From assembly GCA_021648085.1 (NCBI GenBank), contig JAKITS010000001.1, positions 45,434 through 109,433 of the forward strand: a stretch of 64,000 nucleotides of DNA. Direction: 5' to 3'. This DNA comes from Candidatus Magasanikiibacteriota bacterium (GTDB lineage: Bacteria; Patescibacteriota; Patescibacteriia; Magasanikbacterales; UBA922). This document shows, one piece after another, positions 2,743 through 64,000 of the stretch. The translations under genes were made by a program, and so were the position numbers. The notes under the pieces were generated by a model. It worked only from the letters and a program-made list of their open reading frames with translations. It was not told the DNA's origin and did no database searches. Numbering within the stretch: the first letter of the stretch is position 1; each line of letters begins with the position of its first letter.

Positions 2743-3174
2743 ATGCCCCAGCAATTTGTAGTCCCACAATTTATAGATGTAGAAGACAAAATTTTTGGTC
2801 CAGTCACAACTAGACAATTCTTGATTTTGTTGGTGACTGCACTGATACTTTTTATTATTTTTAAACTTGCTGATATTGTTTTATTTGGTTTGCTAACTTT
2901 ACTTTTGGGTGGTTTTTCACTCGTTGTGGCTTTTGTAAAAGTAAATGGTCAGGCTTTTCATTATTTTATATTAAATATTTTTCAAACACTAAAAAAGCCT
3001 GGGTTGCGTGTGTGGAAAAAAGATTATTCAAAAGAAGATTTGGAATATTTGAGAAAATTTGGAATGAAAGAAGAAATAGAAGAAGAGCAGAAAAAAGAAA
3101 TAACAACACATAGAAAAATTAGAGACCTATCCCTAATTGTAAACACGGGTGGGTTTTATAAAGGAGAAGAATAA
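2743..3174 (+). CDS. small two-TM membrane protein, PrgI/VirB3-like T4SS component
   Basis: 143 aa, two adjacent hydrophobic helices, immediately upstream of VirB4-like genes (gene order typical of Gram-positive-type T4SS). Confidence 0.4.
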   Translation: MPQQFVVPQFIDVEDKIFGPVTTRQFLILLVTALILFIIFKLADIVLFGLLTLLLGGFSLVVAFVKVNGQAFHYFILNIFQTLKKPGLRVWKKDYSKEDLEYLRKFGMKEEIEEEQKKEITTHRKIRDLSLIVNTGGFYKGEE

Positions 3175-5757: not shown

Positions 5758-6324
5758 ATGGAAGATATTAGAAAAAGACTTTTAATTATAATAGGATTGG
5801 TTTCATTTACTGTTATTATTGTAGTTGTGATTATATTAGCCGTTACAGGAGGAGAAAACAAAGGCACTCAACAGGTGGAAGATCTGCAACAAGAAAATGT
5901 AGAAGAAATTTTTGAGATAGAAGAAGTGGTCAAACGAGCTCCAACTGTAGAAGATATGCCACCGCAAAATCCAGAAGAGGTGAGTGCAAAACAGACTGCG
6001 CGTCTTTTTGTAGAGAGGTTTCAGACTTATTCAAATCAAAACGATAATAAACATATAGATGATGTGATACATTTGGTCACAGATAGTATGGCTGTGTGGG
6101 TAAGAGCTCAAAAAGTAGACAAAAGTTTGGATTATGAGGGTGTTACAACTCAAATTTTAGCTAGCAATGTATCAAATTTGGAAAGTAGTAGTGTGACCGT
6201 AAATATAGAAGCACGACAGACAGTGGAAAATAGTGAAGGGGAGAATACAGAGCAAAAAAGTGGTAGAATAGAGCTTGTAAAGGTTTCTGGAGAGTGGAAA
6301 GTGAGTGGATTTTTTTGGGATTAA
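5758..6324 (+). CDS. N-terminally membrane-anchored protein with NTF2-like soluble domain; possible VirB8/PrgL-like T4SS component
   Basis: single N-terminal TM helix, ~150-aa extracytoplasmic domain ('ARLFVERFQTYSNQ' NTF2/SnoaL-like), position right after VirB4. Confidence 0.3.
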   Translation: MEDIRKRLLIIIGLVSFTVIIVVVIILAVTGGENKGTQQVEDLQQENVEEIFEIEEVVKRAPTVEDMPPQNPEEVSAKQTARLFVERFQTYSNQNDNKHIDDVIHLVTDSMAVWVRAQKVDKSLDYEGVTTQILASNVSNLESSSVTVNIEARQTVENSEGENTEQKSGRIELVKVSGEWKVSGFFWD

Positions 6325-9560: not shown

Positions 9561-9568
9561 TTTCTTTG

Positions 9569-9658
9569 CGGAGAGGGCGGGATTCGAACCCGCGGTCCGG
9601 GAAATACCCGGACAACACATTAGCAGTGTGCCGCTTTCGACCACTCAGCCACCTCTCC
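9569..9658 (-). tRNA. tRNA-Ser (anticodon GCT), long variable arm
   Basis: cloverleaf readable: acceptor GGAGAGG/CCTCTCC, D-arm GCTGAGTGGTCGAAAGC, anticodon loop CTGCTAA, T-arm GGGTTCGAATCCC. Confidence 0.85.
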
Positions 9659-9672
9659 AGTATTTTTTGTTT

Positions 9673-9898
9673 TTTAAATTCTTGTGGAGAGAGTGGGATT
9701 CCTCTCGCTCCGACTCGAGCCTGGATACTGCGCGTACTCGTATCCTTCTCATCCCACACACGACACAAGACTTTGTGTCGCTTCTATCCTGCGGAGAGAG
9801 TGGGATTCCTCTCGCTCCGACTCGAGCCTGGATACTGCGCGTACTCGTATCCTTCTCATCCCACACACGACACAAGACTTTGTGTCGCTTCTATCCTG
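9673..9898 (-). repeat. two tandem 108-bp units, each = 18-nt copy of tRNA-Ser(TGA) 3' end (AATCCCACTCTCTCCGCA) + terminator-like hairpin + conserved ~55-nt element
   Basis: units 9673-9790 and 9790-9898 nearly identical; directly abut the 3' end of tRNA-Ser(TGA). Confidence 0.8.
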
Positions 9899-9985
9899 CG
9901 GAGAGAGTGGGATTCGAACCCACGGAGGGCGCAAACCCTCAACGGTTTTCAAGACCGCCGCCTTCGACCACTCAGCCATCTCTCC
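9899..9985 (-). tRNA. tRNA-Ser (anticodon TGA)
   Basis: acceptor GGAGAGA/TCTCTCC, anticodon loop CTTGAAA, long variable arm, T-arm GGGTTCGAATCCC. Confidence 0.85.
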
Positions 9986-27793: not shown

Positions 27794-30700
27794 ATGAGAT
27801 TGTTTAAGTCAAAATTTTTCCTATCAATATTTTTTACACTAGTTGTAGTTTCTTTATTTTTTGTTTCGGATATAACTGCTGTTTTTGCACAGCAGGCAGA
27901 TACTTTTGGTTTGGTGGAGGTCGGTCAAGTTACCGAGCTTGGAACGCAAGATATTCGTGTTACAATTGCAAAAATAATAAGAACACTCTTAGGTTTGTTG
28001 GGTGTTTTGGCTGTGTCTATTGTTTTATACGGAGGTTTTGTATATATGACTGCTGGCGGAAGTGAAGATAAACTTGGGCAGGCAAAGAAAATAATTATAA
28101 ATGGGGTTATTGGTTTGGTGATAGTTATGTCTTCTTTTGCAATTACACAGTTTGTCTTGTCGAGCCTTTCAGATGCAACAGGCTCGGGTAGTGTTGGGCT
28201 GTCTTCAAATAATTGTTCAAATACAGAATATGCTATAAACCATCCAAGTGAATGTTTTTCAAATTCAAATTCAGCTTGCACAAAATTTCCATCTTTTTGT
28301 AATTCAGCAGACTTCTTTTTTGTAAAAAGCATAACACCTTCTACACCAAACGGAGCAACAGGAATGAATAATATTGTTATAAGAGCAGTATTTAGTAAAT
28401 CTTTAGCATCAAATACAAATGTAGATTCTATATTTTCAGTTGAAAAAGATGGTATTTCTCAGCCTTTATCTATAAAACTTTCTCAATCTAGACAGGTGGT
28501 GGAGGCAACATTTAGAGCTACCACACCTTTGTGCGATGGGACTGTTCCACCAAATGAAACTTGTTTAGAGTTGGGTGATTTTACTATAAAAATTAATCCA
28601 GATATAAAAGACACAACAGGTAGAGAATTAACAAAAAATATAAATGGGCAGGAGTACCCTGTTTCAGCAGATTTTTCTGTGGATGTTGAGAACATAGACC
28701 ACACAAGACCAACTGTCACAAGTATGACAATAGATGGTTCAAATGCAGAAAATCAAAATATTACAATTGGAGATGCACATTCACTTAGAGTTGCAATGAT
28801 AGATAATACTGGAATTGGTTTTGTAAATATAAACATAAAAAATATAGACACAGGAAAAGTTATAGTAGAGTCTTTTGAGGGTCCAAATCCACTGGACGGA
28901 TCTTCTGGGGAATTTGTTATAGATTATCCTATTATATTGGGGGCTGATATAAATTCACTAGATAGATTTGATGTTTCTGTCACAATTTACGATATAGATC
29001 ATAATAGTAGTGTAAGTATTTTAAGCTTTATAGCTCTAGCAGAGAGCTGTACTAATGGTGTTCAAGATGGAGATGAAACAGGTGTTGATACTGGTGGTTC
29101 TTGCTCACTTTCTTCTGGTAGTTTTTGTGATGAAGATTGGCAGTGTGCCTCTCAAAAATGTGTAAACAACGAGTGTGTTGCTTGGCCAATGATTACAGAT
29201 ATTGATGCTTGGGATGGTGGATCTGGAAACTGGATTACAATTGCAGGACAGTTTTTTGGAGATAAGGAAGGTCTTGTTGAGTTTGGTACAGATTCCAATG
29301 GGGATGGCGAGATAAACGACTTAGATGTGTGGGTTAAAGCCGGTATTGCTATTTGTAGGAGTTTAACTACATGGAAAAACGATTGGATTGTAGTCCAGGT
29401 CCCAGATGATTCAGTTTTGCCAATAGGTTCAGAAAGTGCAATTCGTATTACTCTTGGAGACGGTACAGGGCTTAGTGATTCTACTGTCGATAGTCATGGT
29501 TCCATATCTGGACCAAACAATGGTTTGTTTACAAAAAACGAAATAAAAAGACCTAGTATTTGTGCCGTTGAATCTGTTTTGGGTTCTAATTCAGCAAAAC
29601 CAGATGCTGGTTTTGCTGTAATAGGAAAAAACTTCACAGACGATAAAACTGGAAATAAATTTGAGTTTGGTGGTGTAGAATTACCAACATTAATATGGGG
29701 AGATTTGGAAATTACAAGTAAAATACCGCTAAATACAAATGCTGGTAAGGTCTCTGTTCAGGTTGAGGTTGGTGGAGAAAGAAGTAATACAGTTCCTTTT
29801 ACTGTTTTGCCAATTGATAAAAATTTAATACCTTCAATTTCACTTGTAAACCCAGAAAATATAACAGTAGGAAGTTTTGTTACGCTTTCTGGAACTGGTT
29901 TTGGTGAAACAACAGGAATTGTTTATATATCTCCAAATTCTGGTGCTACTTGTACAGATATTTTGGCAGAAGGTTGTATTCAGGTGGAAGTTTCTTTACC
30001 AAATTTTTGTGGAGATACTTGGAGCTCTAATCAGGTTATTATAAAAATTCCAGATAACACACAATTTGGTGTGTACTATTTGGTTTTACAAAATGATTTT
30101 GGACTTCGTACAGATGGATCAGCTTTTGTTTCTGTTGTTGAGGGAGACCCTAGTCCTAGCATTTGTAAGATGATTCCACAGGCCGGGCCAGCACCACTGC
30201 CTGTTGGACATCAGGGTTTAGAATTTTTTGGGATTAACTTTTCTACAGACCCAACAGTATATTTTTGGTCTAAAACCGCAACAGAAGACGATCTTAATAC
30301 TTGGTTGAACGCAACAGGGAATGATGTAAATCAAATAGATCCGGATACTCATATTGTGAGTTATATCCCGAGTACGATAGAAGGATATTCAATGAAAACA
30401 GGTCCAATTGCCATCAGCTCTATCGATGGTGTTGTTAGTAATGCTGTAAATTACGAGGTTTCAGATTGTCGTGATGTTGGTGCTCCTGTTGGGTATCAGT
30501 GTTGTTCTGTTGGGCCAGACGCTGGAACAATAAAACCAAATGAATTTATTTGTGCAGGAGAGACAAGAGATGCTGGCTATGCTTGGAGATTTACGAGTGG
30601 TCTCCTGCCAAATATACCTTTTGTGGTCGAACAGTGCCCAGAATCAAGCGGTTCCGGAGTACCATCTCCAAGTCCCTGGATAAATAGAAAGCAGGGAGCA

Positions 30701-33700
30701 AATACTTGTTTAAATGCTTTGCCAACAGTTTTGTTTAGTGTGGGAATGAGTGATAGCTCACTTTCAGGAAATATTAGAGTTATTACTTGTGGAGAAGATA
30801 GTTTGCCACAGTGTGAAGATGAGGATATTTTTATTGATGTGTCTGCAGATTTTTCTGCTGGTCTGCGGTCTGAAGGATTTGTTTTAAACTTAACTAATAG
30901 TAATGGGGATTTAACACCAAACACTTGGTATAGGGTTGAACTTGGAAGTGGTTTGCAATCTCAAGAAATTAGGAGTATTTTGGGTATAGATCAGACAGTA
31001 AATGAAAACCTTTTAAAAACAAAATCTTGTGGAGACGGAACTTCTTATTGTTTTGAATTTAAAACAGGAGAAGGTTTATGTACCTTAACTTCTGCAGGTA
31101 TAATGCCAGGTACTCATACAACAAAAATACTAGGTCCTGTTTTGGACAGAAGATTTTCAAAAGAAAGTGAAACTTCACTGTTCTACCATATATTTGGAAA
31201 AGGAGATCAAGAGTGCACGGTTTTAGATGTTGATGGTTTCGGCTGGGACTGGAAGAGTCAAGATGATAATAAGGCAACTGTTGAGATAAGTGTTGGAGAT
31301 GGTTTTGTAGATACTAGAGCAATTGTAAATGCTATAGAAAATACAGCACCAGGAGATGTGAATATTTTTGCAATTTCAAGTAATTCACCTATCTCTCCTG
31401 TAAGTAGTTTAATTATAGATTTAGCAGATCCAAAAGTAGAATCGTATTGGCCAAACTGTGCAGAATCTTGTGTAAATAGTGGTGTTGGTGTCAAATTCAA
31501 CAGAGATATGAATGTTGCTGAATTTGTTTCAAATTTTAGGATAAGTGAGTGTATAGATGAATTTTGTAGTATCACATCAACCATCCCAATACAGTTTGAA
31601 ACTCTGAAAAAAAATAATTTAAATGTATTTCCTGTTGGAAATCTACAGCCAAACACTTGGTATTTTGTAGAGGTTTTTCCAGGAATTCATGCTATAGAAA
31701 AAGAAAATCCTCTTACTTATGGTAAAACAGTGGAAGCTTTTTCTTGGAAGTTTAGAACAAAAAATGACAGTACACTTTGTGGGATTGAGGATGTTTTGGT
31801 TGCCCCAACAAAATATATATCGCGTTTAATAGGAGATAGAAAAGAATATAAAGCAACTCCAATGAGTTTAGCAAATGAGTGTAGTTCTGCTGGACAAAGA
31901 TTAAATCCTTGGAATTTTGCATGGGGTTGGGAGGTCGTGGATACTCAAATAGCTAGTATCTCCTCTTTTGAAACTTTTGGAAAGTCAAAACCATTTTGCA
32001 CAACCTCTTGTTTGTTGGCAGGAAGTGTTGTGAGTTCAGATACTCAAAATGTAACTGCTTTGTGTGGAAATGGGATATTGGAGAGTGGGGAAGACTGTGA
32101 GTTGGATGACCCAGAAGAAGTATTAGGGGTTAGCTGTAGTTTAAGTTGTAAAAGAGTTGGGTCTGTAGCACCAACTTGTGGAGATGGGAGGATAGAATCG
32201 GCAAAAGGTGAGCAATGTGATACAGACGATGCTCTAACAGCCGAGGCTTGTAATGATAATTGTTTGTGGAAAGGTTCTTCAAAAGTAGAGCCAAAATCAA
32301 CAGCGCTAAATATTTCTTGGTGTGGAAGTGGTTCTGTAACATTTGGCGAAAGTTGTGATATTAAAGATCCGCTAACGCAAGATAGATGTTCAAATAAGTG
32401 TTTGAATTTGGGAACGCCTATCTCAAGTTATTGGTGTGAGCAAAATAAAACAAACGAATTACCAGACACAACTTTGGTAGGGCAGTCTGCAGAGTGTTTA
32501 TCTTCTGTAAGTATTTGTGGAAACGGATTATTGGAAAATGGAGAAGCTTGTGAAATCATTGCTAGTACTACTGTTGCGTTTGTGGGTGTTGGAAATGTTA
32601 CAGTTTCAAATGCTTCAGATGTTTGCTCTACTTCTTGTTTAGTTTCAAATGCTTGTGATGAACCAAACATGCCAACCTCAATAAGCTGTGATCCAAAGAT
32701 AGAGGAAGGTTGCACGCCAGAGTGTCTAAATTCTGGCTCATCTCTCGACTATTCAACACCTAGTCTGTGTAACGATGGAATTGTAGGGTTAGGGGAAGAT
32801 AGTTTATGTGAATTATCATCTACCGTACCTTTTGGTCAAAATCCATTGCAAATTGTAACAGCTATTGGAGATGGTGTTGTAAATCCAGATACAAATTCTC
32901 AAGATACACAAATAAGAGCTAGAGCTACAAAAACAAAAGATATAAATGGAAATCCTGTTGATATATCATCAGAATATGGAGAATCTTTATATTCATTACA
33001 GTGCGGATATACAAAATTTGAAGAGCTAATAAATAATAGATTTAACGACTGCCCTAATGCTATTGATGGTGTTGCTACGAACTCTTGTTGTTATACCAGA
33101 CCTCAAAGAGTAAGTGAGTATCCTGTGGATGGTTCTGGGATTGGAAATTCTAGTGCACCAGTTTGTTTGAATTCTTTTATAGAGGTTCATTTTGATGAAG
33201 AGATAAGCAAGTCTTCTGTAAGTGAAAATATATTATTAGCAAAAGGTTATCCGGGTGGATATGATTGTTCTGTAAGTGGAGAGGATAATGTGACAGAACA
33301 GGTGAGAAATTTACTTACTTTGCAAGAAGTAAAAGATGGAATTTGGACAAGGGTTTGGAAGGTTATAAAAAGATTTTTTACAAAAGCTGTTGGTTTGGAA
33401 GTTTTTGCAAGTATGTTTAGTGATTCAGATGTAGAGGTTTGGTGTGTGGGATCTGCAAATTTTAGAACAGATGTCTTGTATGAGGAAGATGTTGATGGAA
33501 ATATACTTTCCACAGATATTTCTATTTCTTTAACAAAGCTTTTGGATGTAGATACTGTTTATGCTGTAGTTTTGAAAAATGAAATTGAAAATTCTGAAGG
33601 TGTTGGAATATCTAGTCCAGATAGTTTAAGTGGTACTTTGGATGATTCATGGATTTTTAAAACTGGAGACGAGGTTTGTAAGATAGACAGCGTTTTTGTA

Positions 33701-36700
33701 AGACCGAGTGCAAAATTATTTGTAAAACCAAACACAACTAGCACTTTTTTTGCATTAGCTCAGAGTACTTCAAAACAAAGAATTGTGCCAATTGAAAATG
33801 TGTATGATTGGGAATGGCATTGGGCACCATTAAATAATGCAATTTTTGATATTTCTGCTTCAACTAGTTCTATAAATATAATAGCTTCTAAAGATTTAGA
33901 AGGAAGTGTTCTTGCAAGTGCAAATGCTGTAATTACTCACGACGCAGATCAAAACAATAGTCAGTTTGGAGAGTATTTTACCGGAATTACAAAATTGTTT
34001 GCTTTATTTTGTGAGAATCCTTGGCCACAATACGAATATTTTCCTTTTGAAGAAGGTATATCTTTTGGATCTTTGGGAAATATAAGTGGTTTTGAGCGGG
34101 GAGTTTTTGATGGCTCTACAATTCCAAAAGTTAGAATAGGTGGAGTATTTGAGTACTTTAATTTCAGTATGTCTTATTGTGCGGATAGTGGATCTTCTGA
34201 TAATAAAGCAGACGATCTTCCGTTCCTAAAACCTATTGTTCTTGTAAATGAATTTGATGTAGTTTCTGGTAATTTAGTTCAAGTTGGTGATAAAAGTTTG
34301 TCTGAGGATACTTTAAAAAAATTCTTCTTTTTCAATGAAAAAAATGATGATGTAATTGGTGTTCAAATTTTTATGAATCCGCTCAGGCTTACTGCCCGTG
34401 AATGGTATATAGAAAAATTTGGATCAGACATTGGAATGGATCAAATAACAGTTGCAGGTTATGATGCGTTGTCAGATAATAATAGTATTTATATAAACGC
34501 ACTAAATCAAGGTTCAAATGGAGATATTTATAATAATATTTACTTATTCAGTTTAAATGGAAGTGCGCAATCAAACACCCGTGAAGTTTTTGATATGTTG
34601 ATGGACTCACTTAAAATGAATATAAATATAAGTGAGTTTAATAGTTGCTCACAAGATGGGGATTTTAACACACCAAATATACAAGAAACAGTAGAGTGTA
34701 GCACAGACTTCGAATGTTTAGATGTTGCAGATTCTGGAGGGGTTTGCGCAAATGCACAGACAAAATTCAAAAGAGATTGGACGCGTCTAACAGACTTAAG
34801 GAATACTCAAGAAAAATTAGATTTTTATAAATTAGAAAATAATTCTTATCCAAAATTAGCTTCTGGATCTTTTATTCCAAACTACACAGTTTCCAAATGG
34901 TCATCTTGGGGAAACTTAAGTAATCTAATTGGTGGAGCGCCGTTAGATCCAGTAAACAAGTGGTCCGATTGTGGTGATTTGGATCCACAGACTTGTTGGG
35001 CTGCAGATGTTTCTGAATATGTTTGTCCAGAAAAAACTAGTGTGTACGAATATTCTTTTGACAGTATAACTAGTGATTACACGCTTCACATCCCTTTTGA
35101 ATATTTTGATTTATCCTCATCTGTAGTTTCAGGATTTTTGGACACTTCAAAAATTAAAATAGACAGGTGGTGTACACCGGGCGACATATATAACCCATCT
35201 TCTGGTGTGTGTGGAGATGGTGTAGTAAATGTTGGTGAACAGTGCGACCCTCCAAATTCTATAAATTACACAAATCAAGGTGTGGTTGGATCACAACAAT
35301 CTGGTTTTTGTGCAGATAGTTATTTGAACCAATCTATTTCTTGTATAAATTCAGCAGATTGTGGTTTATATTTGAATGTTGATGTTGAGCGATCAAAAAA
35401 GAGTATTTTTTCAGATACTGGTTCTGTTTGTTTCGGTGGAGTAGCAAAAGATTTACCATACGACATTTTAGCACATAAAAATGATGAAAGTAAATTATAT
35501 GGAATTAGTTGCCAAACATCTTCTGATTGTAAGTCTAAGGAAAATTATTTTAAAAATTTAACAGCAGGCGGATCTGGTGTACTTGGATTGTACAATGTTC
35601 AAAATGATAGTTTTGCTGAAGAGTCTTTAATTGGTGAATTTATATATAAAAACTTAGATGGAATAAAATGTCTTTCTTTACGGGATTTAGATATAGAATT
35701 TAGAAATGCTGGAAGTGGGACAAGGGGTACAAAACCTGTGGAGTGTAGTATTTCTACAAGTAATCCAATAATTGGATCTTGTAATAATGTAGGAGAATTG
35801 GCGCCAGCTCAGTGTACAGATAAGTGTACAATTAAATATGGAAGTTGTACTTCTTTTACAGACTGTGGAAACGGAAGGGTCGAAATTGGAGAAAATTGTG
35901 ATGATGGTGTAAAAAATGGAGAGTATGGAAGTTGTAATTTAACTTGTGATGGAGTTAGTGATCAGTATTGTGGAAATGGTCAAAAAGATGGTGCAAATGA
36001 AGTTTGTGATATAAATAATTTGGGTTTATCTGGATATTGTAGCAAAGATAAAAACATAAGCTGTTCTGATGATTTGGATTGTGGTGAGGTTAGAAATTTT
36101 GGTAGTTGTGGATATGAATATGTTTCTAATGTTCTAAAGCCTGTGTGTTCCTCAATAGATAGTAATGGTAATGTCCAACTTTCAAATTATCAGAATGGAA
36201 CGCAAGTGTTTTGTTATGACAACAGTTGTGATAAATTCGATAAAATTTATGGAACTTGTATTGCATCAAGTGATCCAACATACAGTTTTAATAAAGATAA
36301 TACTTGCGCTTGGGATTGTCAGGATTTTGGAGATTATTGCGGAGATGGAATTGTGCAAGGTGATTACGAAGCTTGCGATGATGGAAATTCAATAGACGAT
36401 GACAGTTGTGATAATTTTTGTGAAATTAATCTTTTAGCTACCACAAGTCAAGCAAGCTCTGCACCAAGTTGTGGAGATGGTGTGGTAGAAGAAGATGGTA
36501 CAGAAACTTGTGATTTGGGAGAGGATAATGGAATTAAATGTAGTCCATCTTATGGAGAATCTTGTAGTTACTGTTCACTAGATTGTGAAAATATTTTGAC
36601 AGTGGACCCTGTCGCGTATTGTGGAAATGAGACTGTTGATTTTAAATTTAATGATTTTAGTGATTGTTCAGATACTGGGAATATTTGCTTATCCGAACCT

Positions 36701-37981
36701 GTTTATGAGGCTTGTGATTTAAATAATAATAAAGTAGTCAAAAGAACTTCTTCTGGTCAAATATTAACACTTGAATGTGAAGACCAAGGCGCTTATTCGT
36801 GTAATAGTTGTAATGCACTTTCAGACAATTGTGCCAAATGTGTACTAGATACTTCAGGATTACTATCTGTTCCAAAAATCGCAATCCTAAATCCAATGAT
36901 AGGAAATGTGGAGCCTTTGGACAAAAACAGTGTGGATCGTTGGGGTTTTGAAGAGACTTTAGTTTTGGTGAGGCCAGAACCACCTGCAGGTTTTATTCAA
37001 AATCCTTATTTTGGATTTACAAGGCTTACAATGGAAAGTAGTATATATAAAGATCCAACACAGCAAAACTATATGATGGTTGAAAGTGGAACTGGTACTT
37101 ATGCACCTTATAAAGAACACACAATAGAAGGTAATGATTTATGTAGCGGAGAATATGGCGTTTATTTCAGTAATAAAGCTATATTTAATGCTGTAAATGG
37201 TTCAGAAGAAGGTTTTGAGGATAGTTATACAGATTTAACTCGTGGGGATCTTTATGATTATCCAGTAGACGGAACTGCTGAAATAAACAATGAAATAGTA
37301 TATTCTCCAGCTGTGCCACTAGAAGTATTTAGAGTAGTTGTAAAATGGACAGATAAGGAAGCTCGCTCAAATGTTTCGTTTAGTGGAATTGTTCAAAGTA
37401 ATTTTCTAAATCCAGCAGGAGAGTTGAACGGGGCTACTACATTTACAGACGCTGCTGCAGACAGAAAAATATGTAATCAGATAGGTTTAGTGAGTAATTT
37501 TCCAATAGAAGGTAGAAGTTTACCTAACTTTAATGAGTTTAGCAAATATTGGTGGCCAGAAAATACAGCTTGTGCTTACAATAAAAGAATCTATGTACAC
37601 CCAGAAGGAAGTATGGCTAGAACTTATACACAGTCTTTTACTATAGATACTTATAATGATAATGCAGACTATTCTTTTGTTGTGCAAGCTGTAAGTGGTT
37701 CTTTGGAAGGTTCACCAATAGCATCATTTCAGAATAGTAATTTGGAAGTAGAGGTGTACACTCATCACAGTGGACAGGTTCCTAGGGTTTCGGTTTTTAA
37801 ACCTACTCACACTTTCAAAATTAACCAATCACAAAAAAGCAGTAATAATGTGGCAAGATATTGGAGTGTATTTAATATTAAGAGGGTTTCAACCTCAGAA
37901 GGTTCAAAATATGAAATTCAAGCAATAGGAACAAACGGAAGTATAGAATCAACTTGGGATGAGGTTGTTCCTAATTTTTAA
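27794..37981 (+). CDS. giant (3395 aa) secreted/membrane-anchored cysteine-rich protein: VirB2/TrbC-like N-terminal domain + IPT/Ig-like modules + multiple Myxococcus-type cysteine-rich repeats (CG[DN]G...GE.CD)
   Basis: single uninterrupted ORF; >15 'CG(D/N)G..E.GE.CD(D)' repeats between aa ~1380-2600; start ATG 2 nt after previous stop. Confidence 0.6.
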   Translation: MRLFKSKFFLSIFFTLVVVSLFFVSDITAVFAQQADTFGLVEVGQVTELGTQDIRVTIAKIIRTLLGLLGVLAVSIVLYGGFVYMTAGGSEDKLGQAKKIIINGVIGLVIVMSSFAITQFVLSSLSDATGSGSVGLSSNNCSNTEYAINHPSECFSNSNSACTKFPSFCNSADFFFVKSITPSTPNGATGMNNIVIRAVFSKSLASNTNVDSIFSVEKDGISQPLSIKLSQSRQVVEATFRATTPLCDGTVPPNETCLELGDFTIKINPDIKDTTGRELTKNINGQEYPVSADFSVDVENIDHTRPTVTSMTIDGSNAENQNITIGDAHSLRVAMIDNTGIGFVNINIKNIDTGKVIVESFEGPNPLDGSSGEFVIDYPIILGADINSLDRFDVSVTIYDIDHNSSVSILSFIALAESCTNGVQDGDETGVDTGGSCSLSSGSFCDEDWQCASQKCVNNECVAWPMITDIDAWDGGSGNWITIAGQFFGDKEGLVEFGTDSNGDGEINDLDVWVKAGIAICRSLTTWKNDWIVVQVPDDSVLPIGSESAIRITLGDGTGLSDSTVDSHGSISGPNNGLFTKNEIKRPSICAVESVLGSNSAKPDAGFAVIGKNFTDDKTGNKFEFGGVELPTLIWGDLEITSKIPLNTNAGKVSVQVEVGGERSNTVPFTVLPIDKNLIPSISLVNPENITVGSFVTLSGTGFGETTGIVYISPNSGATCTDILAEGCIQVEVSLPNFCGDTWSSNQVIIKIPDNTQFGVYYLVLQNDFGLRTDGSAFVSVVEGDPSPSICKMIPQAGPAPLPVGHQGLEFFGINFSTDPTVYFWSKTATEDDLNTWLNATGNDVNQIDPDTHIVSYIPSTIEGYSMKTGPIAISSIDGVVSNAVNYEVSDCRDVGAPVGYQCCSVGPDAGTIKPNEFICAGETRDAGYAWRFTSGLLPNIPFVVEQCPESSGSGVPSPSPWINRKQGANTCLNALPTVLFSVGMSDSSLSGNIRVITCGEDSLPQCEDEDIFIDVSADFSAGLRSEGFVLNLTNSNGDLTPNTWYRVELGSGLQSQEIRSILGIDQTVNENLLKTKSCGDGTSYCFEFKTGEGLCTLTSAGIMPGTHTTKILGPVLDRRFSKESETSLFYHIFGKGDQECTVLDVDGFGWDWKSQDDNKATVEISVGDGFVDTRAIVNAIENTAPGDVNIFAISSNSPISPVSSLIIDLADPKVESYWPNCAESCVNSGVGVKFNRDMNVAEFVSNFRISECIDEFCSITSTIPIQFETLKKNNLNVFPVGNLQPNTWYFVEVFPGIHAIEKENPLTYGKTVEAFSWKFRTKNDSTLCGIEDVLVAPTKYISRLIGDRKEYKATPMSLANECSSAGQRLNPWNFAWGWEVVDTQIASISSFETFGKSKPFCTTSCLLAGSVVSSDTQNVTALCGNGILESGEDCELDDPEEVLGVSCSLSCKRVGSVAPTCGDGRIESAKGEQCDTDDALTAEACNDNCLWKGSSKVEPKSTALNISWCGSGSVTFGESCDIKDPLTQDRCSNKCLNLGTPISSYWCEQNKTNELPDTTLVGQSAECLSSVSICGNGLLENGEACEIIASTTVAFVGVGNVTVSNASDVCSTSCLVSNACDEPNMPTSISCDPKIEEGCTPECLNSGSSLDYSTPSLCNDGIVGLGEDSLCELSSTVPFGQNPLQIVTAIGDGVVNPDTNSQDTQIRARATKTKDINGNPVDISSEYGESLYSLQCGYTKFEELINNRFNDCPNAIDGVATNSCCYTRPQRVSEYPVDGSGIGNSSAPVCLNSFIEVHFDEEISKSSVSENILLAKGYPGGYDCSVSGEDNVTEQVRNLLTLQEVKDGIWTRVWKVIKRFFTKAVGLEVFASMFSDSDVEVWCVGSANFRTDVLYEEDVDGNILSTDISISLTKLLDVDTVYAVVLKNEIENSEGVGISSPDSLSGTLDDSWIFKTGDEVCKIDSVFVRPSAKLFVKPNTTSTFFALAQSTSKQRIVPIENVYDWEWHWAPLNNAIFDISASTSSINIIASKDLEGSVLASANAVITHDADQNNSQFGEYFTGITKLFALFCENPWPQYEYFPFEEGISFGSLGNISGFERGVFDGSTIPKVRIGGVFEYFNFSMSYCADSGSSDNKADDLPFLKPIVLVNEFDVVSGNLVQVGDKSLSEDTLKKFFFFNEKNDDVIGVQIFMNPLRLTAREWYIEKFGSDIGMDQITVAGYDALSDNNSIYINALNQGSNGDIYNNIYLFSLNGSAQSNTREVFDMLMDSLKMNINISEFNSCSQDGDFNTPNIQETVECSTDFECLDVADSGGVCANAQTKFKRDWTRLTDLRNTQEKLDFYKLENNSYPKLASGSFIPNYTVSKWSSWGNLSNLIGGAPLDPVNKWSDCGDLDPQTCWAADVSEYVCPEKTSVYEYSFDSITSDYTLHIPFEYFDLSSSVVSGFLDTSKIKIDRWCTPGDIYNPSSGVCGDGVVNVGEQCDPPNSINYTNQGVVGSQQSGFCADSYLNQSISCINSADCGLYLNVDVERSKKSIFSDTGSVCFGGVAKDLPYDILAHKNDESKLYGISCQTSSDCKSKENYFKNLTAGGSGVLGLYNVQNDSFAEESLIGEFIYKNLDGIKCLSLRDLDIEFRNAGSGTRGTKPVECSISTSNPIIGSCNNVGELAPAQCTDKCTIKYGSCTSFTDCGNGRVEIGENCDDGVKNGEYGSCNLTCDGVSDQYCGNGQKDGANEVCDINNLGLSGYCSKDKNISCSDDLDCGEVRNFGSCGYEYVSNVLKPVCSSIDSNGNVQLSNYQNGTQVFCYDNSCDKFDKIYGTCIASSDPTYSFNKDNTCAWDCQDFGDYCGDGIVQGDYEACDDGNSIDDDSCDNFCEINLLATTSQASSAPSCGDGVVEEDGTETCDLGEDNGIKCSPSYGESCSYCSLDCENILTVDPVAYCGNETVDFKFNDFSDCSDTGNICLSEPVYEACDLNNNKVVKRTSSGQILTLECEDQGAYSCNSCNALSDNCAKCVLDTSGLLSVPKIAILNPMIGNVEPLDKNSVDRWGFEETLVLVRPEPPAGFIQNPYFGFTRLTMESSIYKDPTQQNYMMVESGTGTYAPYKEHTIEGNDLCSGEYGVYFSNKAIFNAVNGSEEGFEDSYTDLTRGDLYDYPVDGTAEINNEIVYSPAVPLEVFRVVVKWTDKEARSNVSFSGIVQSNFLNPAGELNGATTFTDAAADRKICNQIGLVSNFPIEGRSLPNFNEFSKYWWPENTACAYNKRIYVHPEGSMARTYTQSFTIDTYNDNADYSFVVQAVSGSLEGSPIASFQNSNLEVEVYTHHSGQVPRVSVFKPTHTFKINQSQKSSNNVARYWSVFNIKRVSTSEGSKYEIQAIGTNGSIESTWDEVVPNF

Positions 37982-50594: not shown

Positions 50595-51167
50595 ATGCAG
50601 GATTTTTGTAAAAATAAAACAGACGAAGAATTGGTAAAATTATCCCTGCAAAAACAGGACTATTTTTTGTGTCTAATGGAAAAGTACGAGGGCAGGTTGA
50701 TTTCTTATGTTATGCGTATTTCTAGTTTTAACAGAGAGGATGCTGAAGATGTTTTACAAGAAGTTTTTGTAAAAGCTTATTTTAATTTGAATAATTTTGA
50801 TACAAAACTAAAATTTTCATCTTGGATTTATAGAATTACCCACAATCAAACTATTAGTCAGTTTAGAAAAAACAAGGTGCGTCCTTTATTTTATTTTGAA
50901 GAAAATGATCTAATTTTACTTATTGATAAATTTAATTTATCAAAAGAAGTGGACGATGGTTTTTTGAAGGAAAAAGTTTTAGAAGTTTTACAAAAAATGG
51001 ATAAGAAGTATAGTGAAGTTTTGGTTCTTAAATTTTTAGAGGATAAAGATTATAAGGAAATTTCAGATATTTTGAAAAAACCAACAGGAACTGTTGGAAC
51101 TTTAATAAATAGGGCAAAAACTAAATTTAAAAATGAATTTTTAAAATATGAAGGAAAATCTCAGTAA
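50595..51167 (+). CDS. ECF-family RNA polymerase sigma factor
   Basis: sigma-70 region 2 ('DVLQEVFVKAY..WIYRITHN') and region 4 HTH ('YKEISDILKKPTGTVGTLINRAK'). Confidence 0.8.
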   Translation: MQDFCKNKTDEELVKLSLQKQDYFLCLMEKYEGRLISYVMRISSFNREDAEDVLQEVFVKAYFNLNNFDTKLKFSSWIYRITHNQTISQFRKNKVRPLFYFEENDLILLIDKFNLSKEVDDGFLKEKVLEVLQKMDKKYSEVLVLKFLEDKDYKEISDILKKPTGTVGTLINRAKTKFKNEFLKYEGKSQ

Positions 51168-51876
51168 AAAAGTTTTAGATAAAATTAAAGAAGAAGACTT
51201 AAAACCTATTTCAAAGTCTAGTTTTCTGCTTAAAAATTCTATTTTGTGGATTTTTGGTGGACTTACGATGATTCTTGGAGCAGTTGCTGTTTCTGTGATT
51301 ATTTTCATACTCACAACTCAGGAGTGGAGTATTTACAAACAAATTGGCGACGGGTTTTTTAAGTTTTTCTTTTTGGTAGTTCCATACTTTTGGTTTGTTA
51401 TTTTTACTTTGTTTATTTTTATTACATATTTAAATTACAAACATACAAAGTTTGGCTATCGTCATAGTTTTGGAATGGTTGTGTTGGTATATTTTTTAGC
51501 AACTTTAGTTTTGGGTGGAGTATTTTATTTTGCAAAAGTTGGTGGCAAAATGGAAAATTTATTTAGTCAAAAAGTTCCTTTTTATGAGGTGATGGTGCAA
51601 CACAGGCAAAAAGTCTGGCAGTATCCAGAGCGTGGGCTACTTGGTGGTCGTATAGAAAAAATACTTCCAAATGGTTTTTTACTTTTGGATATTAACAAGG
51701 AAAAATGGATTGTAGATACAAAAGACGCTAAAATTTACAGTATTCAAGAGTTGAAGACTGGAAATGTGGTAGGGATTGTTGGCAAAGAATTATCTAAAAG
51801 TTTATTTAAGGCGGATTCTGTGAGAATAAGAGGTCTAAGAAGGTCAACACTAATTCAACAAAGTGAAAGAAAATAG
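51148..51876 (+). CDS. polytopic membrane protein, putative anti-sigma factor (overlaps sigma gene by 20 nt)
   Basis: position and overlap typical of sigma/anti-sigma pairs; several TM helices. Confidence 0.45.
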   Translation: MKENLSKKVLDKIKEEDLKPISKSSFLLKNSILWIFGGLTMILGAVAVSVIIFILTTQEWSIYKQIGDGFFKFFFLVVPYFWFVIFTLFIFITYLNYKHTKFGYRHSFGMVVLVYFLATLVLGGVFYFAKVGGKMENLFSQKVPFYEVMVQHRQKVWQYPERGLLGGRIEKILPNGFLLLDINKEKWIVDTKDAKIYSIQELKTGNVVGIVGKELSKSLFKADSVRIRGLRRSTLIQQSERK

Positions 51877-59715: not shown

Positions 59716-60360
59716 ATGGGAATCGGAATTCTTTTATGGTATAATATTTTTATGTATTCAAGACCTGTCAAAATTTTAATAAAAAGATATAAACTGCTTT
59801 TAACAGCGGGTATTATTGGTACTGCAATTGTTCTTACTATTAGTCTGCTTGTTTCTCCGTTAGAATATCGCGCAGACGCTCAAGTTCTTATTATTTCTCA
59901 GTCCAGACTTGGTGTGGATCCTTATACTGTGGTAAAGTCTGCAGAGCGAATAGGGGAGAATTTAATTCAAATCATGAAGACAGAAGATTTTTTGAACAAG
60001 GTTATAGAGCAAGATATTGAAGTTTTCAATGAGTTGAACCTTCAGGAATTGGACACAAGGGAAAAAAGAAAGTTATGGAATAAATCCACTTCAGCTTCTG
60101 TAGTTTATGGCACTGGTGTTTTGAATGTTTCTGCGTTCCATCAAAATTCAGAAATAGCAGAAAAATTATCAAAAGCAGTTGTAGATACTTTAGTTTTTAA
60201 AGGTTGGGAATATGTTGGTGGAGATGTGGTTATAAAGGTTATCAACAATCCAGTGGCTACAAAATTTCCCGTTAGGCCAAATTTACCATTGAATGCTTTT
60301 GCAGGTTTTGTATTCGGAACTATATTTATGGGGTTAATTCTTGTTAGAAAGTTTAGATAA
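59716..60360 (+). CDS. membrane protein with N- and C-terminal TM helices (Wzz/CpsC-like topology)
   Basis: TM at both ends, ~150-aa periplasmic-like middle; TATAAT at 59738-59743 is 8 nt before ATG 59752 (possible leaderless start). Confidence 0.3.
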   Translation: MGIGILLWYNIFMYSRPVKILIKRYKLLLTAGIIGTAIVLTISLLVSPLEYRADAQVLIISQSRLGVDPYTVVKSAERIGENLIQIMKTEDFLNKVIEQDIEVFNELNLQELDTREKRKLWNKSTSASVVYGTGVLNVSAFHQNSEIAEKLSKAVVDTLVFKGWEYVGGDVVIKVINNPVATKFPVRPNLPLNAFAGFVFGTIFMGLILVRKFR

Positions 60361-60632
60361 AAAATAAATTTAATAAAAATTCTGTGCTAAAATAAGCCAA
60401 AAAATTGGCTTATTTTTTATTTTTAGCTAAAATTAGCTAAATAAACTTGACAAAACTATATTTTTATGGTATTTTTATCTATCGTCTTTAAAACTTATAA
60501 GTTTGTGAAGTAAAAAGTTAAAAGTTCTTTTTTGTCATTTCTGGCTTGACTAGGAATCTAGGAGTCTTTATTAAATGAACAACGAAAGAAAGGTGTGGAT
60601 TTTTGGTCAAACTAAAAATAACAGAAAATATT

Positions 60633-60737
60633 CACGTCATCCTGAGCGAAGCCGAAGGATCTCGAGAAAGTATCACCTTTCCTTCACGTCATCCTGAGCG
60701 GAATGAAGCAGGGCGGAATGAAGTCGAATGGATCTCG
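60633..60737 (+). repeat. two tandem copies of dispersed repeat family (second with expanded variable segment)
   Basis: cacgtcatcctgagcgaagccgaaggatctcg... and cacgtcatcctgagcggaatgaagcagggcggaatgaagtcgaatggatctcg. Confidence 0.8.
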
Positions 60738-60842
60738 TAATAAAATCACAATACTTTAAATATTCATAATTCTGGTAATATAATCTCAAGATATTTCGGT
60801 TATGTTCAATATGACTTGTAATGTTTTATTAAAAATAAGGTG

Positions 60843-60915
60843 AGAATAATTTAGAAAATATAAAAATATTTTTTAAATCATCTTCATCAATTCTGATGAA
60901 GAACTGCTTTGGGTG
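60843..60915 (+). promoter_or_regulatory. conserved upstream module with perfect palindrome tcttcatca-attc-tgatgaaga (60881-60902); paralogous copy at 63090-63160
   Basis: ~70 nt shared with 63090-63160; the palindrome shows a compensatory T:A->C:G change between copies. Confidence 0.55.
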
Positions 60916-60983
60916 AAAGCTCAAAATAGTGTTCGTGTTTTTTACAAACCATAATAATACTCACAATTCCTGAGGAGGAAAAA

Positions 60984-62504
60984 ATGAGCAAGGACAATGA
61001 CAATAATCACGGTTCGGAAATTTTGGAACTTGAAGTTGGTGGGGCTGACCTCCTTTTCAATGAAGGGGAGGCAGAAGATGTTGTCGACGCTTTGGCGGAG
61101 ACGACACTTGTAAATGCAGTTGTGGAAGAAGATGTTTCTTTCACAGTCATTCCCAGCCGAGACCAAGAAGAGGAGATTCAAAACCTCCTCGGAGCTCTAG
61201 GGAAAACAGGTGAGGAGTCTCCAGAAGACTCACTTCAAGCTTTCTCCAAAAGTGGGGATGACGAGGAGTGGAAACCTGCAGTAGTGGTGGAGGCTGAGAA
61301 GTCTACCACCAAAAAACAGGCAGCTGGAGCTCACCAAAAAGTAGAGGTTTTTTCCTCCAAAAAAATCCCGATAGGAACTCCAATTGGACTTCCTCATGGG
61401 AATACTCCCAGAATCCGAAAGGATTTGGGTGGGGTGCAGGAGATCTTGAGGGAGGATGGAACATCCAAACTCAAGGCTGTTCCTATGGATGGGAATACTT
61501 TAACAGCTCCTGTCACGGAGTTGTCGGAGTCTGCACAAGAGGAAGAGTTTTTCAAAGGTGGTGACACTCCACCAAAAGGCTTCAAAGCTGTTCAAAAAGA
61601 TGGTGAAAATCGTCTTGGAGATACATGGGTCGATGAAGATCCATCGTGGTTCGACCGAAACAGCTCAAGCATTTTGGGGTTTGGGATTATCGCTATTGTG
61701 GCGGTAATTCTTTCACTGGTGTTTTTGACTTTGGACATAGCCAAAGCTCCAAACCTCTCGACAGAGGAGCAGACCGCCGAAAAGTCGATAAGTTCCGAAA
61801 AACTCTTTCCTCCCACTTCAGATTCTTCTTCGGAAGAGGAGAAATGGACAGAGGAGGAAAAGAGAAACTTGGAGTCGGAAAAGGCTTTGTCACTTGCTGA
61901 GGAGAATCGCGAAAAGGCAGAAGATCTAGCAGAAGAGTTAGTTTCTTCCGCTACGAGCGCATCTCCAACTACCTCTCCTATTGGATTGGGAAGTACTACA
62001 GGAGCTCTTGATGTGGTGACAACAACAATCGGTGATGATTCTTCGAAAGAGGAAGTCGTTGTTGAAGTCAAAGAAGAAGTTGACTATTCCGAAGCATATG
62101 AAAATATACAAGGAGAAGTTGGTGGACTCGCCGAAGATGTTGAACTGTTCGCAGTCGATGTTCTCGGTGCGATTTCTGAAACTACTTGGCTTACTGTACG
62201 CACTCAACTTGCTAAAGAGGGTTCCGTCGCCGAAACCGAGGAAACAGATTCAGATGATGATTTGGACATTGAGTTCGAAGTCTCTGATGAACCTTCGGGT
62301 GGTGGATATTTTGATATGTCCACAGACGAAATTCTCGCACTAGACTACACAAATCCTCGCGGTGAGGATGATTGTGTGGCTATTATGAGTAGAGCTGGAT
62401 CGGACGAAGTTGGTGAGTTCGAAGGTATGCTCTGTTGCAGAAATCTCCAGATTCTTTCTGGAAAAGATGTGACAGATTGTCAAATTAGAGTGGAAAACTT
62501 TTAG
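60984..62504 (+). CDS. acidic single-pass membrane protein with novel C-terminal Cys domain (..DYTNP.GEDDC...GMLCCRNLQI...DCQIRV); visibly higher G+C than surroundings
   Basis: 506 aa; central TM 'ILGFGIIAIVAVILSLVFLTL'; C-terminal ~55 aa shared with 63209..63739. Confidence 0.5.
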   Translation: MSKDNDNNHGSEILELEVGGADLLFNEGEAEDVVDALAETTLVNAVVEEDVSFTVIPSRDQEEEIQNLLGALGKTGEESPEDSLQAFSKSGDDEEWKPAVVVEAEKSTTKKQAAGAHQKVEVFSSKKIPIGTPIGLPHGNTPRIRKDLGGVQEILREDGTSKLKAVPMDGNTLTAPVTELSESAQEEEFFKGGDTPPKGFKAVQKDGENRLGDTWVDEDPSWFDRNSSSILGFGIIAIVAVILSLVFLTLDIAKAPNLSTEEQTAEKSISSEKLFPPTSDSSSEEEKWTEEEKRNLESEKALSLAEENREKAEDLAEELVSSATSASPTTSPIGLGSTTGALDVVTTTIGDDSSKEEVVVEVKEEVDYSEAYENIQGEVGGLAEDVELFAVDVLGAISETTWLTVRTQLAKEGSVAETEETDSDDDLDIEFEVSDEPSGGGYFDMSTDEILALDYTNPRGEDDCVAIMSRAGSDEVGEFEGMLCCRNLQILSGKDVTDCQIRVENF

Positions 62505-62518
62505 GAGGTGAGTAAAAT

Positions 62519-62558
62519 CGACCGATTGTGAATATAGAAATATATCCACAATCGGTCG
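62519..62558 (+). terminator. terminator hairpin (12-bp stem cgaccgattgtg / cacaatcggtcg)
   Basis: read in sequence right after stop codon. Confidence 0.6.
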
Positions 62559-62575
62559 TAAACTACATTTTAGAC

Positions 62576-62604
62576 TTGACAAAAGTATAAAAATGTGGTA
62601 TAGT
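62576..62604 (+). promoter_or_regulatory. consensus sigma70 promoter TTGACA-N17-TATAGT reading into the repeat array
   Basis: exact -35 hexamer, 17-bp spacer, near-consensus -10. Confidence 0.6.
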
Positions 62605-62642
62605 TATATATTGATTTTTAAATAGAAAAGTGAAACATTTGC

Positions 62643-63080
62643 GAGATATTTCGACTCCGTTTCACTGCGCTCAATATGACGTAAAATAGTCATGTCATCC
62701 TGAGCGGAACAAAGTAAAGTCGAATGGATCTCGAGACAATATCACTTTTTCACACGTCATCCTGAGCGAAGCCGAAGGATCTCGAAACAGAATCACAGAG
62801 TATAAACATTAAAAATCACACACGTCATCCTGAGCGAAGTCGAAGGATCTCGAAACAGAATCACAGAGTACAAACATTAAAAACCACACACGTCATCCTG
62901 AGCGAAGTCGAAGGATCTCGAAACAGAATCACAGAGTACAAACATTAAAAACCACACACGTCATCCTGAGCGAAGTCGAAGGATCTCGAAACAGAATCAC
63001 AAAGTACAAACATTAAAAACCACACACGTCATCCTGAGCGAAGTCGAAGGATCTCGAAACAGAATCACAGAGTATAAAAG
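62643..63080 (+). repeat. repeat-family array: reverse copy (62643-62681), variant forward copy (62694-62752), then 5 tandem 68-bp units (62753-63080)
   Basis: period 68 bp (not a multiple of 3); units differ by only 1-3 SNPs, i.e. the inter-repeat segments are identical rather than spacer-like. Confidence 0.85.
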
Positions 63081-63127
63081 AAAAAAGTGAGAATTGTTTA
63101 GAAAATATAAAAATATTTTTTAAACAA

Positions 63128-63149
63128 TCTTCACTAATTCTGGTGAAGA
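63128..63149 (+). promoter_or_regulatory. palindrome tcttcacta-attc-tggtgaaga (paralogous operator-like site)
   Basis: see 60881-60902. Confidence 0.5.
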
Positions 63150-63208
63150 AGTTCATTCCATATTATTTCATTCCTTTCCTTTCCTTCTTTTTTTCACGTT
63201 TTTAAAGC

Positions 63209-63739
63209 GTGAAGGAGAAAACAATGTCCGAAGAAAAAAAAGAAAAAAAAGAACAAGAAGAACAAGAAGAACAAGAACAAAAAGAACAAGAAGAACAAGA
63301 AGAACAAGAAGAAGAGAGGGAGGTGGAGACACCTCTCAAGGAGAAAAAGACAATAAATTGGATTTGGGGAGCGCTTGCCATTTGGGCAAGTGTTCTCGTG
63401 ATTTGGGGATTGGCGAGTATTTTCTCCTCGGACGATGAGTTCGTAGAGAAAGAGTCGTCACCGCCGCCACCAGTGGTAGTGGCAACAACTTCAATCCCAA
63501 CTCCAATTTTATTACCTCCAACACCTATTGTGGTGAACGGGGTATGCTCATATCTTCCGGATTATACAAATCCCGGAGATGAGGACTGGTGCGTGAAAGT
63601 CGCACAGGAGGCAAAGAGACTTTGTTCTGGCGAAGATGCAGAATTCTACGGCATGCTTTGCTGTAGGAATTTGCAGATTAAAATCGACGACGATGTCGTC
63701 GATTGTCAGATTCGAGTCTCTAGTGTTTTTTATAGATAA
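63209..63739 (+). CDS. acidic (EEQ-repeat) single-pass membrane protein with the same C-terminal Cys domain (paralog of 60984..62504)
   Basis: 'DYTNPGDEDWC...YGMLCCRNLQIKIDDDVVDCQIRV'; TM 'WIWGALAIWASVLVIWGLASIF'; Pro-rich linker. Confidence 0.5.
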   Translation: MKEKTMSEEKKEKKEQEEQEEQEQKEQEEQEEQEEEREVETPLKEKKTINWIWGALAIWASVLVIWGLASIFSSDDEFVEKESSPPPPVVVATTSIPTPILLPPTPIVVNGVCSYLPDYTNPGDEDWCVKVAQEAKRLCSGEDAEFYGMLCCRNLQIKIDDDVVDCQIRVSSVFYR

Positions 63740-63753
63740 GGAGGAATGAAAAC

Positions 63754-63786
63754 AGCCAGATTTGTGATTTCTCACAAATCTGGCTG
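63754..63786 (+). terminator. terminator hairpin cagccagatttgtga-tttc-tcacaaatctggctg
   Basis: read in sequence after stop. Confidence 0.6.
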
Positions 63787-63803
63787 TAAAATACTTTTTA
63801 CAC

Positions 63804-63832
63804 TTGACAAAAGTTAGAAAGTATGCTATTAT
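63804..63832 (+). promoter_or_regulatory. sigma70 promoter TTGACA-N17-TATTAT reading into next repeat copies
   Basis: same CACTTGACAAAAGT context as 62573-62586. Confidence 0.55.
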
Positions 63833-63892
63833 CTTATATTATTTAAAAAGTGAAAATTATTATTAAAATTTTGAGTTAAAGTGAATTGGTTG

Positions 63893-64000
63893 CGAGATAT
63901 TTCGACTCCGTTTCACTCCGCTCAATATGACGTAAAATAGTTGCATCATCCAAAAAAATAGAAATTATCTTAAAGAAATATTTTGCAACACGTCATCCTG
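63893..64000. repeat. repeat-family copies (reverse copy 63893-63932; forward copy begins 63989, truncated by window end)
   Basis: gagatatttcgactccgtttcactccgctcaatatgacgt ... cacgtcatcctg. Confidence 0.75.

Follow-up and report, generated by a model that had tools for sequence, protein, structure and literature searches.

Palindromes upstream of two Cys-domain genes of a Magasanikiibacteriota bacterium probably mark an RNA hairpin in a covarying leader element

Within a 64,000-nt stretch of DNA from a Candidatus Magasanikiibacteriota bacterium (referred to here as the window), two genes encoding proteins with a Cys-rich C-terminal domain are each preceded by a short palindrome, which raises the question of whether this palindrome is recognized as DNA, folds as RNA, or has no function of its own. 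An earlier note on the sequence had attributed it to selection rather than chance, acting on either a dimeric-regulator operator or an RNA hairpin. The palindrome, termed here HP2, is located among the following features (L3J07_00495 and L3J07_00500 are ids on the source contig):

59716-60360: Wzz-like protein, the neighbor used to reach related genomes
60881-60902, + strand: HP2 copy 1, TCTTCATCA-ATTC-TGATGAAGA, a perfect 9-bp inverted repeat with a 4-nt spacer
60984-62504, + strand: gene 1, encoding 506 aa with a single TM helix and a Cys-rich domain at the C terminus (NCBI L3J07_00500)
63128-63149, + strand: HP2 copy 2, TCTTCACTA-ATTC-TGGTGAAGA
63224-63739, + strand: gene 2, encoding a 171-aa paralogue that shares the Cys-rich domain at the C terminus

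Read directly from the sequence, the perfect inverted repeat at 60881-60902 is present as the earlier note had described it, as is the compensatory change in the second copy (stem position 7, T-A to C-G). A second change had been overlooked: at stem position 8 of copy 2, C-G is replaced by T·G, which is a mismatch in duplex DNA and a wobble pair in + strand RNA. Copy 2 thus scores 8/9 as a DNA palindrome and 9/9 as a + strand RNA stem. From the hairpin ends to the ATG codons at 60984 and 63224 there are 82 and 75 nt, respectively, in line with the ~80 nt originally given, and the distance from HP2 to ATG is 68 to 82 nt in the six leaders measured. The conserved block said to surround both copies also proved real, as an element of ~65 nt (60839-60904 and 63086-63151) that is 87.5% identical between the copies, with flanks at 46 to 50%. 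No further copy was retrieved within the 64-kb window, including by covariance-model searches with filters off. The window holds ~27 distinct perfect 9-bp inverted repeats, mostly terminators, and first-order Markov simulations predict ~5 per 64 kb by chance. Since such repeats are common, the case for function rests on conservation and covariation across genomes rather than on the palindrome alone.

Related genomes were reached primarily through the Wzz-like protein; an identical protein is encoded by a Candidatus Magasanikbacteria MAG (Patescibacteria/CPR). In total, eight copies of the element were collected from four related genomes: the two in the window and six more in syntenic contigs of the relatives L004, L007, and L013. 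L004 (Wzz 82% identical, syntenic) carries three leader copies (L4A, L4B, and L4C), and L007 (Wzz 62% identical) carries one clear copy (L7A) and one sequence-divergent analogue (L7B), in which the second hairpin has almost no sequence identity to the others yet folds into the same topology. L013, with two leader copies, was reached via P0123, the only other detectable Cys-domain protein. The Wzz relatives L005, L006, and L009 to L012 (56 to 59% identity) have neither Cys-domain genes nor the element. An exact search with the 25-mer TTTAGAAAATATAAAAATATTTTTT, in hindsight too window specific for finding diverged copies, gave chance AT-rich matches in genome and metagenome contigs and none in viral contigs. 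The genes downstream of the element belong to two unrelated families, namely, the Cys-domain single-TM proteins and a signal-peptide protein (L4C and L13C; L7B for the analogue); the element is therefore a shared leader and not merely a by-product of the duplication of one gene. Its orientation and its distance to the ATG are constant among the copies. Identity within the element is 84 to 88% among paralogues and orthologues, compared to 46 to 69% for the flanking leader and ~50% for the first 300 nt of the coding sequence, making the element the best-conserved part of the locus.

The element consists, in order, of a purine-rich 5' segment (GGUGAGAAU), a first hairpin (HP1), and HP2, which forms the 3' half and starts three nucleotides downstream of HP1. 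The earlier note had treated the AT-rich block before the palindrome as plain conserved sequence; it is instead HP1, a second covarying hairpin. Likewise overlooked was the upstream GTGAGAAT, an alternative partner of the left arm of the palindrome: the conserved GGTGAGAAT (60839-60849), upstream of HP1, is complementary to the linker plus the HP2 5' arm. The parts upstream of HP2 are as follows:

60839-60849, + strand: 5' partner segment of copy 1, GGTGAGAATAA, able to form the RNAalifold-predicted alternative helix (85% paired)
60850-60877, + strand: HP1 copy 1, TTTAGAAAATAT-AAAA-ATATTTTTTAAA, a 12-bp A/U stem with one G.U
63086-63096, + strand: 5' partner segment of copy 2, AGTGAGAATTG, in which A4-U53 and G14-C43 replace the G-C and A-U of copy 1
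63097-63124, + strand: HP1 copy 2, with the same sequence as copy 1 and flanking pairs that lengthen the stem to 15 to 16 bp

The HP2 5' arm is pyrimidine rich (AUCUUCAY) and has two mutually exclusive partners. In state A, it would pair with its own 3' arm, giving HP1 plus HP2; in state B, it would pair with the upstream GGUGAGAAU, stacked on HP1, giving a single irregular hairpin that, for the window, L004, and L013 copies, has 23 to 26 bp interrupted by 1 to 3 internal mismatches. Constrained folding predicts the two states to lie 1 to 4 kcal/mol apart in every copy tested. In L004 and L013, HP1 is TTTAGAAATTCT-AAAA-AGGATTTTTGAA and keeps 12/12 pairs: relative to the window, two pairs have changed on both sides (one from A-U to U-A, the other from A-U to C-G), and two U-A pairs have become U·G; in L007, 11 of the 12 pairs are kept, with additional double changes. 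The single-stranded parts vary among copies: the HP2 loop is AUUC, CUUU, CUUG, CUUA, or 7 to 13 nt, the HP1 loop is AAAA, AAUAA, or 12 nt, and the HP1-HP2 linker is UCA, CAA, UAA, or UUU. As separate observations, an additional hairpin is often found directly 5' of the Shine-Dalgarno (SD) sequence (e.g., 63197-63213), and a GUUC(A/G)U motif recurs in all leaders 2 to 30 nt downstream of HP2, in the following regions:

60903-60940 and 63150-63165: GUUC(A/G)U motif regions of the window
2930-2965, 4958-4975, and 5938-5950: GUUC(A/G)U motif regions of L004

Covariation was assessed on the collected copies, as the earlier note had proposed; across the eight copies and four genomes, compensatory and wobble changes maintain both helices. 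For HP1 and HP2 together, 95.8% of cells are paired in the eight copies of alignment A9, and sliding the partner by 1 to 3 columns reduces this value to 46 to 62%; registration of both alignments used (A8 and A9) was manual and loop insertions were trimmed, such that these figures lean towards structure. Double compensatory changes occur at 7/21 pairs, and 0/500 shuffles reached the observed values, a control that ignores relatedness; the eight copies come from four close genomes, represent approximately three sequence types, and contain few independent substitution events. Taken separately, HP1 is 99% paired (double compensatory changes at 4/12 pairs) and HP2 is 92% paired (3/9). The alternative helix is 85.2% paired in the eight copies (33 to 55% with the partner slid), and both sides have changed at 4 of its 11 pairs; its G-C to A-U change in copy 2 faces the same C-to-T change that weakens HP2. 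The long helix was recovered independently when RNAalifold was applied to an untrimmed MAFFT alignment, with 21 pairs, 6 of which carry double changes. Single-sequence minimum free energy folds are either HP1 plus HP2 or the long helix, with z-scores of -2 to -7.5, and the L13A fold is nonsignificant. Noncompensatory substitutions, named in advance as evidence against selection on the arms, are found in part (L4B and L7A have U x U at position 7, and L13A has two broken pairs), with HP2 remaining largely paired as given above. The HP2 5' arm has two covarying, mutually exclusive partners, and both pairings look selected. Of the original contrast between selection and chance, selection on pairing is thus supported across genomes, while a 9-bp palindrome by itself is not rare.

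The least probable of the explanations considered is that the element has no dedicated function, i.e., that paralogue identity stems from recent duplication or gene conversion and that the hairpins are incidental AT-rich palindromes, parts of MITE-like repeats, or a recombination site. The abundance of chance palindromes would fit this explanation, as would the behavior of the downstream genes. Paralogues show concerted evolution, and gene conversion could explain some of the sequence identity. The Cys-rich domain, for which no Pfam match was found, is encoded in the following regions:

62343-62501 and 63560-63736: Cys-rich domain coding regions of the window
4205-4405 and 5323-5523: Cys-rich domain coding regions of L004

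Orthologues of gene 1 share 42% amino acid identity. In the Cys-rich domain, paralogues of the same genome resemble each other more than syntenic orthologues do: identity is 58% for the window pair, and the domain of the second window copy versus that of L4B is undetectable by tblastn, a pattern that suggests concerted evolution of the C-terminal domains within genomes. The family itself is extremely rare, given that exhaustive HMMER searches found only the two window proteins and P0123 significant among 1.84 billion proteins, that word-indexed protein searches with the Cys domain returned nothing or the query itself, and that a scan of genome-contig proteins returned nothing.

The intergenic regions are, moreover, full of repeat elements, another point in favor of a nonfunctional origin. 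A 68-nt tandem repeat (4.8 copies, 97% identical; units GTCATCCTGAGCGAAG(T/C)CGAAGGATCTCG) occupies 62751-63078 of the window, further units lie at 60633-60745, 62640-62750, and 63890-64000, and a diverged reverse-complement form (CGAGATATTTCGACTCC...GCTCAATATGACG) is also present. These units fill the space from promoter to element and, in L004 and L013, sometimes form inverted MITE-like pairs. Against a nonfunctional origin, L007 carries the element but none of the repeats, the element is kept in four genomes while flanking leader and coding sequence drop to ~50% identity, its changes are concentrated in paired positions with pairing kept, and its placement relative to the ATG does not vary.

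Whether the element is transcribed was considered in light of the promoters around it, which include two sigma-70-like promoters in the window:

60447-60475, + strand: TTGACA-17-TATTTT with TG, ~360 nt upstream of element copy 1
62576-62604, + strand: TTGACA-17-TATAGT with TG, ~480 nt upstream of element copy 2

The promoter at 60447-60475 is the likely source of the leader transcript for copy 1. Repeat elements occupy the 360 to 480 nt between the window promoters and the element copies, and in the window, L004, and L013, the nearest consensus promoter lies 350 to 800 nt from the element. In L007, a predicted TTGACA-17-TGnTATATT promoter, homologous to the window promoter, lies only ~16 to 22 nt before the element. 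The helix of L7A starts at ~+16 from the predicted start of this consensus promoter; for L7B, the long helix starts at ~+2 from the predicted start and is accompanied by an overlapping second hairpin. This position of the L007 element, downstream of a consensus promoter, would place the element in the transcript.

The promoters belong to terminator-promoter modules (60389-60475, 62519-62604, and 63752-63832) that are conserved in L004, L007, and L013. Each module comprises a 16- to 18-bp perfect hairpin with a GAAA loop and no + strand U-tract, followed within ~17 nt by an extended -10 promoter close to consensus (TTGACA-17-TGnTATAGT); this promoter module recurs after every terminator in the window. 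A third unit of terminator, promoter, and repeat elements begins at 63752 and runs off the window end (63752-64000), and another leader element with its gene probably follows shortly after position 64000.

The predicted transcription of the element bears directly on the choice between operator and RNA hairpin, as does the strand on which pairing is kept. HP1 and HP2 contain 25 G·U cells in eight pair columns versus one A·C cell. They are consequently ~96% paired as + strand RNA and ~81% paired as Watson-Crick DNA or as - strand RNA, and minus-strand folds are weaker in the three copies tested. We regard as very unlikely the alternative in which a dimeric transcription factor binds the palindrome as DNA, perhaps together with the adjoining AT-rich palindrome, and controls the downstream gene as a repressor or an activator. 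Operators of dimeric HTH repressors are indeed short perfect dyads that may stand upstream of paralogous genes, the dyad symmetry of copy 1 is perfect, one change is symmetric at the DNA level, and the outer hexamers of HP2 (TCTTCA/TGAAGA) are kept as sequence in most copies. However, the spacing between these hexamers is 10 nt in five copies but widens to 13 nt in L7A and to 19 nt in L4B and L13A, a variability that a rigid dimeric DNA-binding protein would not tolerate. The 25 G.T-type cells are mismatches in a DNA palindrome and reflect drift on one strand only, and the L007 site lies at ~+66 to +90 from the predicted start, ~70 to 95 nt after the -10 box and thus downstream of the promoter. 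An operator would also leave the covarying alternative helix unexplained.

A nearby HTH regulator, which the earlier note had suggested looking for, was absent from the Pfam-scanned ORFs over ~11 kb upstream. The only regulator candidate is an ECF-type sigma factor (Sigma70_r2 plus r4_2; 50595-51873), ~10 kb upstream; it is overlapped by a 242-aa ORF that is possibly an anti-sigma factor, and no link to the leader was found. Between the two options first offered, the RNA hairpin is favored by the + strand wobbles, the spacing, and the L007 promoter, and the operator is disfavored. We consider it likely that the palindrome is the DNA image of the RNA stem-loop HP2, located in a structured, probably bistable, two-hairpin 5' untranslated leader of ~65 nt ahead of the downstream genes.

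Several known leader types were then weighed as functions for this RNA. Neither the loops nor the linker are conserved, which argues against a metabolite riboswitch, and Rfam gave no match at the gathering score near the element, with only noise at E values of up to 10 over 60380-61000. The A/U-rich composition of HP2 and the lack of a U-tract after it argue against a classical terminator. The same features weaken a transcription attenuator, in which HP2 would be the terminator and the long helix (GGUGAGAAU plus the HP2 5' arm) the antiterminator, perhaps stabilized by an RNA-binding protein as in the BglG/SacY RAT systems. In BglG/SacY/LicT antitermination and in attenuators, an upstream hairpin likewise overlaps the 5' arm of a downstream hairpin such that only one forms at a time; this 1:2 versus 2:3 topology of alternative pairing matches that of the element, and the two states here are nearly isoenergetic. 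We nevertheless consider an attenuator unlikely: the HP2 stem has 3 to 4 G-C pairs of 9 and a stability of ~-8 kcal/mol rather than a G+C-rich stem, no copy has a U-tract after HP2 (flanks ACUGCUUUGG, AGUUCAUUCC, and GUGUUCAUUU), and a promoter/terminator scan gave no + strand call at HP2. Nor is there a RAT consensus or a nearby gene for a PRD-type antiterminator.

Control of the SD sequence was likewise not supported. Predicted SD accessibility did not differ between states A and B, and the HP2 5' arm as an anti-SD sequence gave duplex energies no better than those of other SD regions in the window (background fractions of 0.06 to 0.94). With riboswitch, terminator, and SD control unsupported, what remains by elimination is a posttranscriptional role for helices that are recognized as helices.

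Other candidate signals were tried and rejected. A leader peptide starting in the HP2 3' arm (ATG, GTG, or TTG at the covarying position) would have no SD sequence and only 6 to 25 codons, and the syntenic orthologues, window copy 1 and L4A, differ in its length (6 versus 24 codons); the corresponding mini-ORFs in the window (60896-60916 and 63143-63205) are probably not real. As a -35/-10 promoter, the AT-rich block would offer a -10 candidate (TTAAAT or TTGAAT) without the conserved A2; it also bears a 1-nt insertion in L4C and an ~8-nt insertion in L7A, and it covaries as a hairpin. By eye, a CsrA-type GGA occurs in L004-type copies only and a LexA/Cheo-like GAAC-N4-GTTC in L4B only, neither being conserved, and the ECF-type GAAC..CGTC motif is absent.

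Taken together, the element looks like a lineage-specific regulatory or stabilizing mRNA element and not a repressor site on DNA. It would act in cis after transcription has started and may coregulate a small tandem group of genes for secreted or membrane proteins. Our preferred output is control of mRNA fate, with the long helix serving as a putative 5'-proximal protective structure or RNase III-type processing structure and HP2 presumably forming the 5' stem-loop of the mature message. For the window copies, a 5'-terminal role of the hairpin would require processing of the 360- to 480-nt upstream leader.

Two groups of known systems resemble such a role. The 5' hairpins of Escherichia coli ompA (hp1/hp2) and of Bacillus subtilis aprE and ermC similarly place one or two simple hairpins close to the start of the leader. 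As here, 5'-untranslated-region stabilizers of this kind can precede an envelope-protein message, lie tens of nucleotides upstream of the SD sequence, and have neither a conserved loop nor a U-tract; the L007 structure would similarly begin a few to ~16 nt from the predicted start. In contrast to these stabilizers, to which the element has no sequence relationship, selection also seems to act here on a second, mutually exclusive helix, and the window, L004, and L013 elements are distant from their nearest consensus promoters. The second group comprises RNase III processing hairpins of leaders and intercistronic regions, such as the phage T7 R1.1-type sites and those in the E. coli pnp and rnc leaders. 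State B, with its 23 to 26 bp and conserved internal mismatches, falls in the same size class, and in the window, L004, and L013 it reaches the ~20 bp or more of near-continuous double-stranded RNA typical of RNase III substrates, a likeness in size only; the stem here, unlike those sites, is almost pure A/U. By analogy, cleavage of state B by RNase III would free HP2 at a new 5' end.

About equally defensible as this mRNA-fate model is a protein- or temperature-driven switch. A broader version, which we put forward only tentatively, is a bistable leader RNA in which the ~65-nt element toggles between its two covarying folds and, via a trans-acting protein, RNase III, or temperature, coordinately sets the expression of a tandem, rapidly diversifying, and concertedly evolving surface-protein family; such a device may tie to an episymbiotic lifestyle. 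The vsp and vsa loci of Mycoplasma are comparable in that a reduced genome encodes tandem, fast-evolving surface proteins sharing a highly conserved upstream cassette. The units described here differ in that they have the same orientation and each its own promoter, with neither a recombinase nor evidence of inversion sites, and in that base pairing is what is conserved.

To our knowledge, gene regulation in CPR/Patescibacteria is almost unexplored, and no CPR/Patescibacteria-specific cis-regulatory RNA in Rfam matches the element. A covariation-supported leader RNA ahead of fast-evolving surface proteins thus provides a testable handle on posttranscriptional control in uncultured symbionts, and the regulon of the element could be traced with the covariance model obtained here. 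Its general significance is modest, as its hairpins are of an ordinary kind and only four closely related genomes are known to carry it to date; this would rise if a trans-acting partner or a clear switch function were found.

Two further observations concern the wider locus. A perfect 107-nt tandem duplication (9686-9915; 2.1 copies, 100% identical) is relatively G+C rich and is flanked by two tRNA-Ser genes (9568-9658 and 9898-9985). In addition, a single ORF of 3395 aa spans 27794-37981 of the window, and giant proteins are also encoded after the Wzz gene in the distant relatives L009 to L012.
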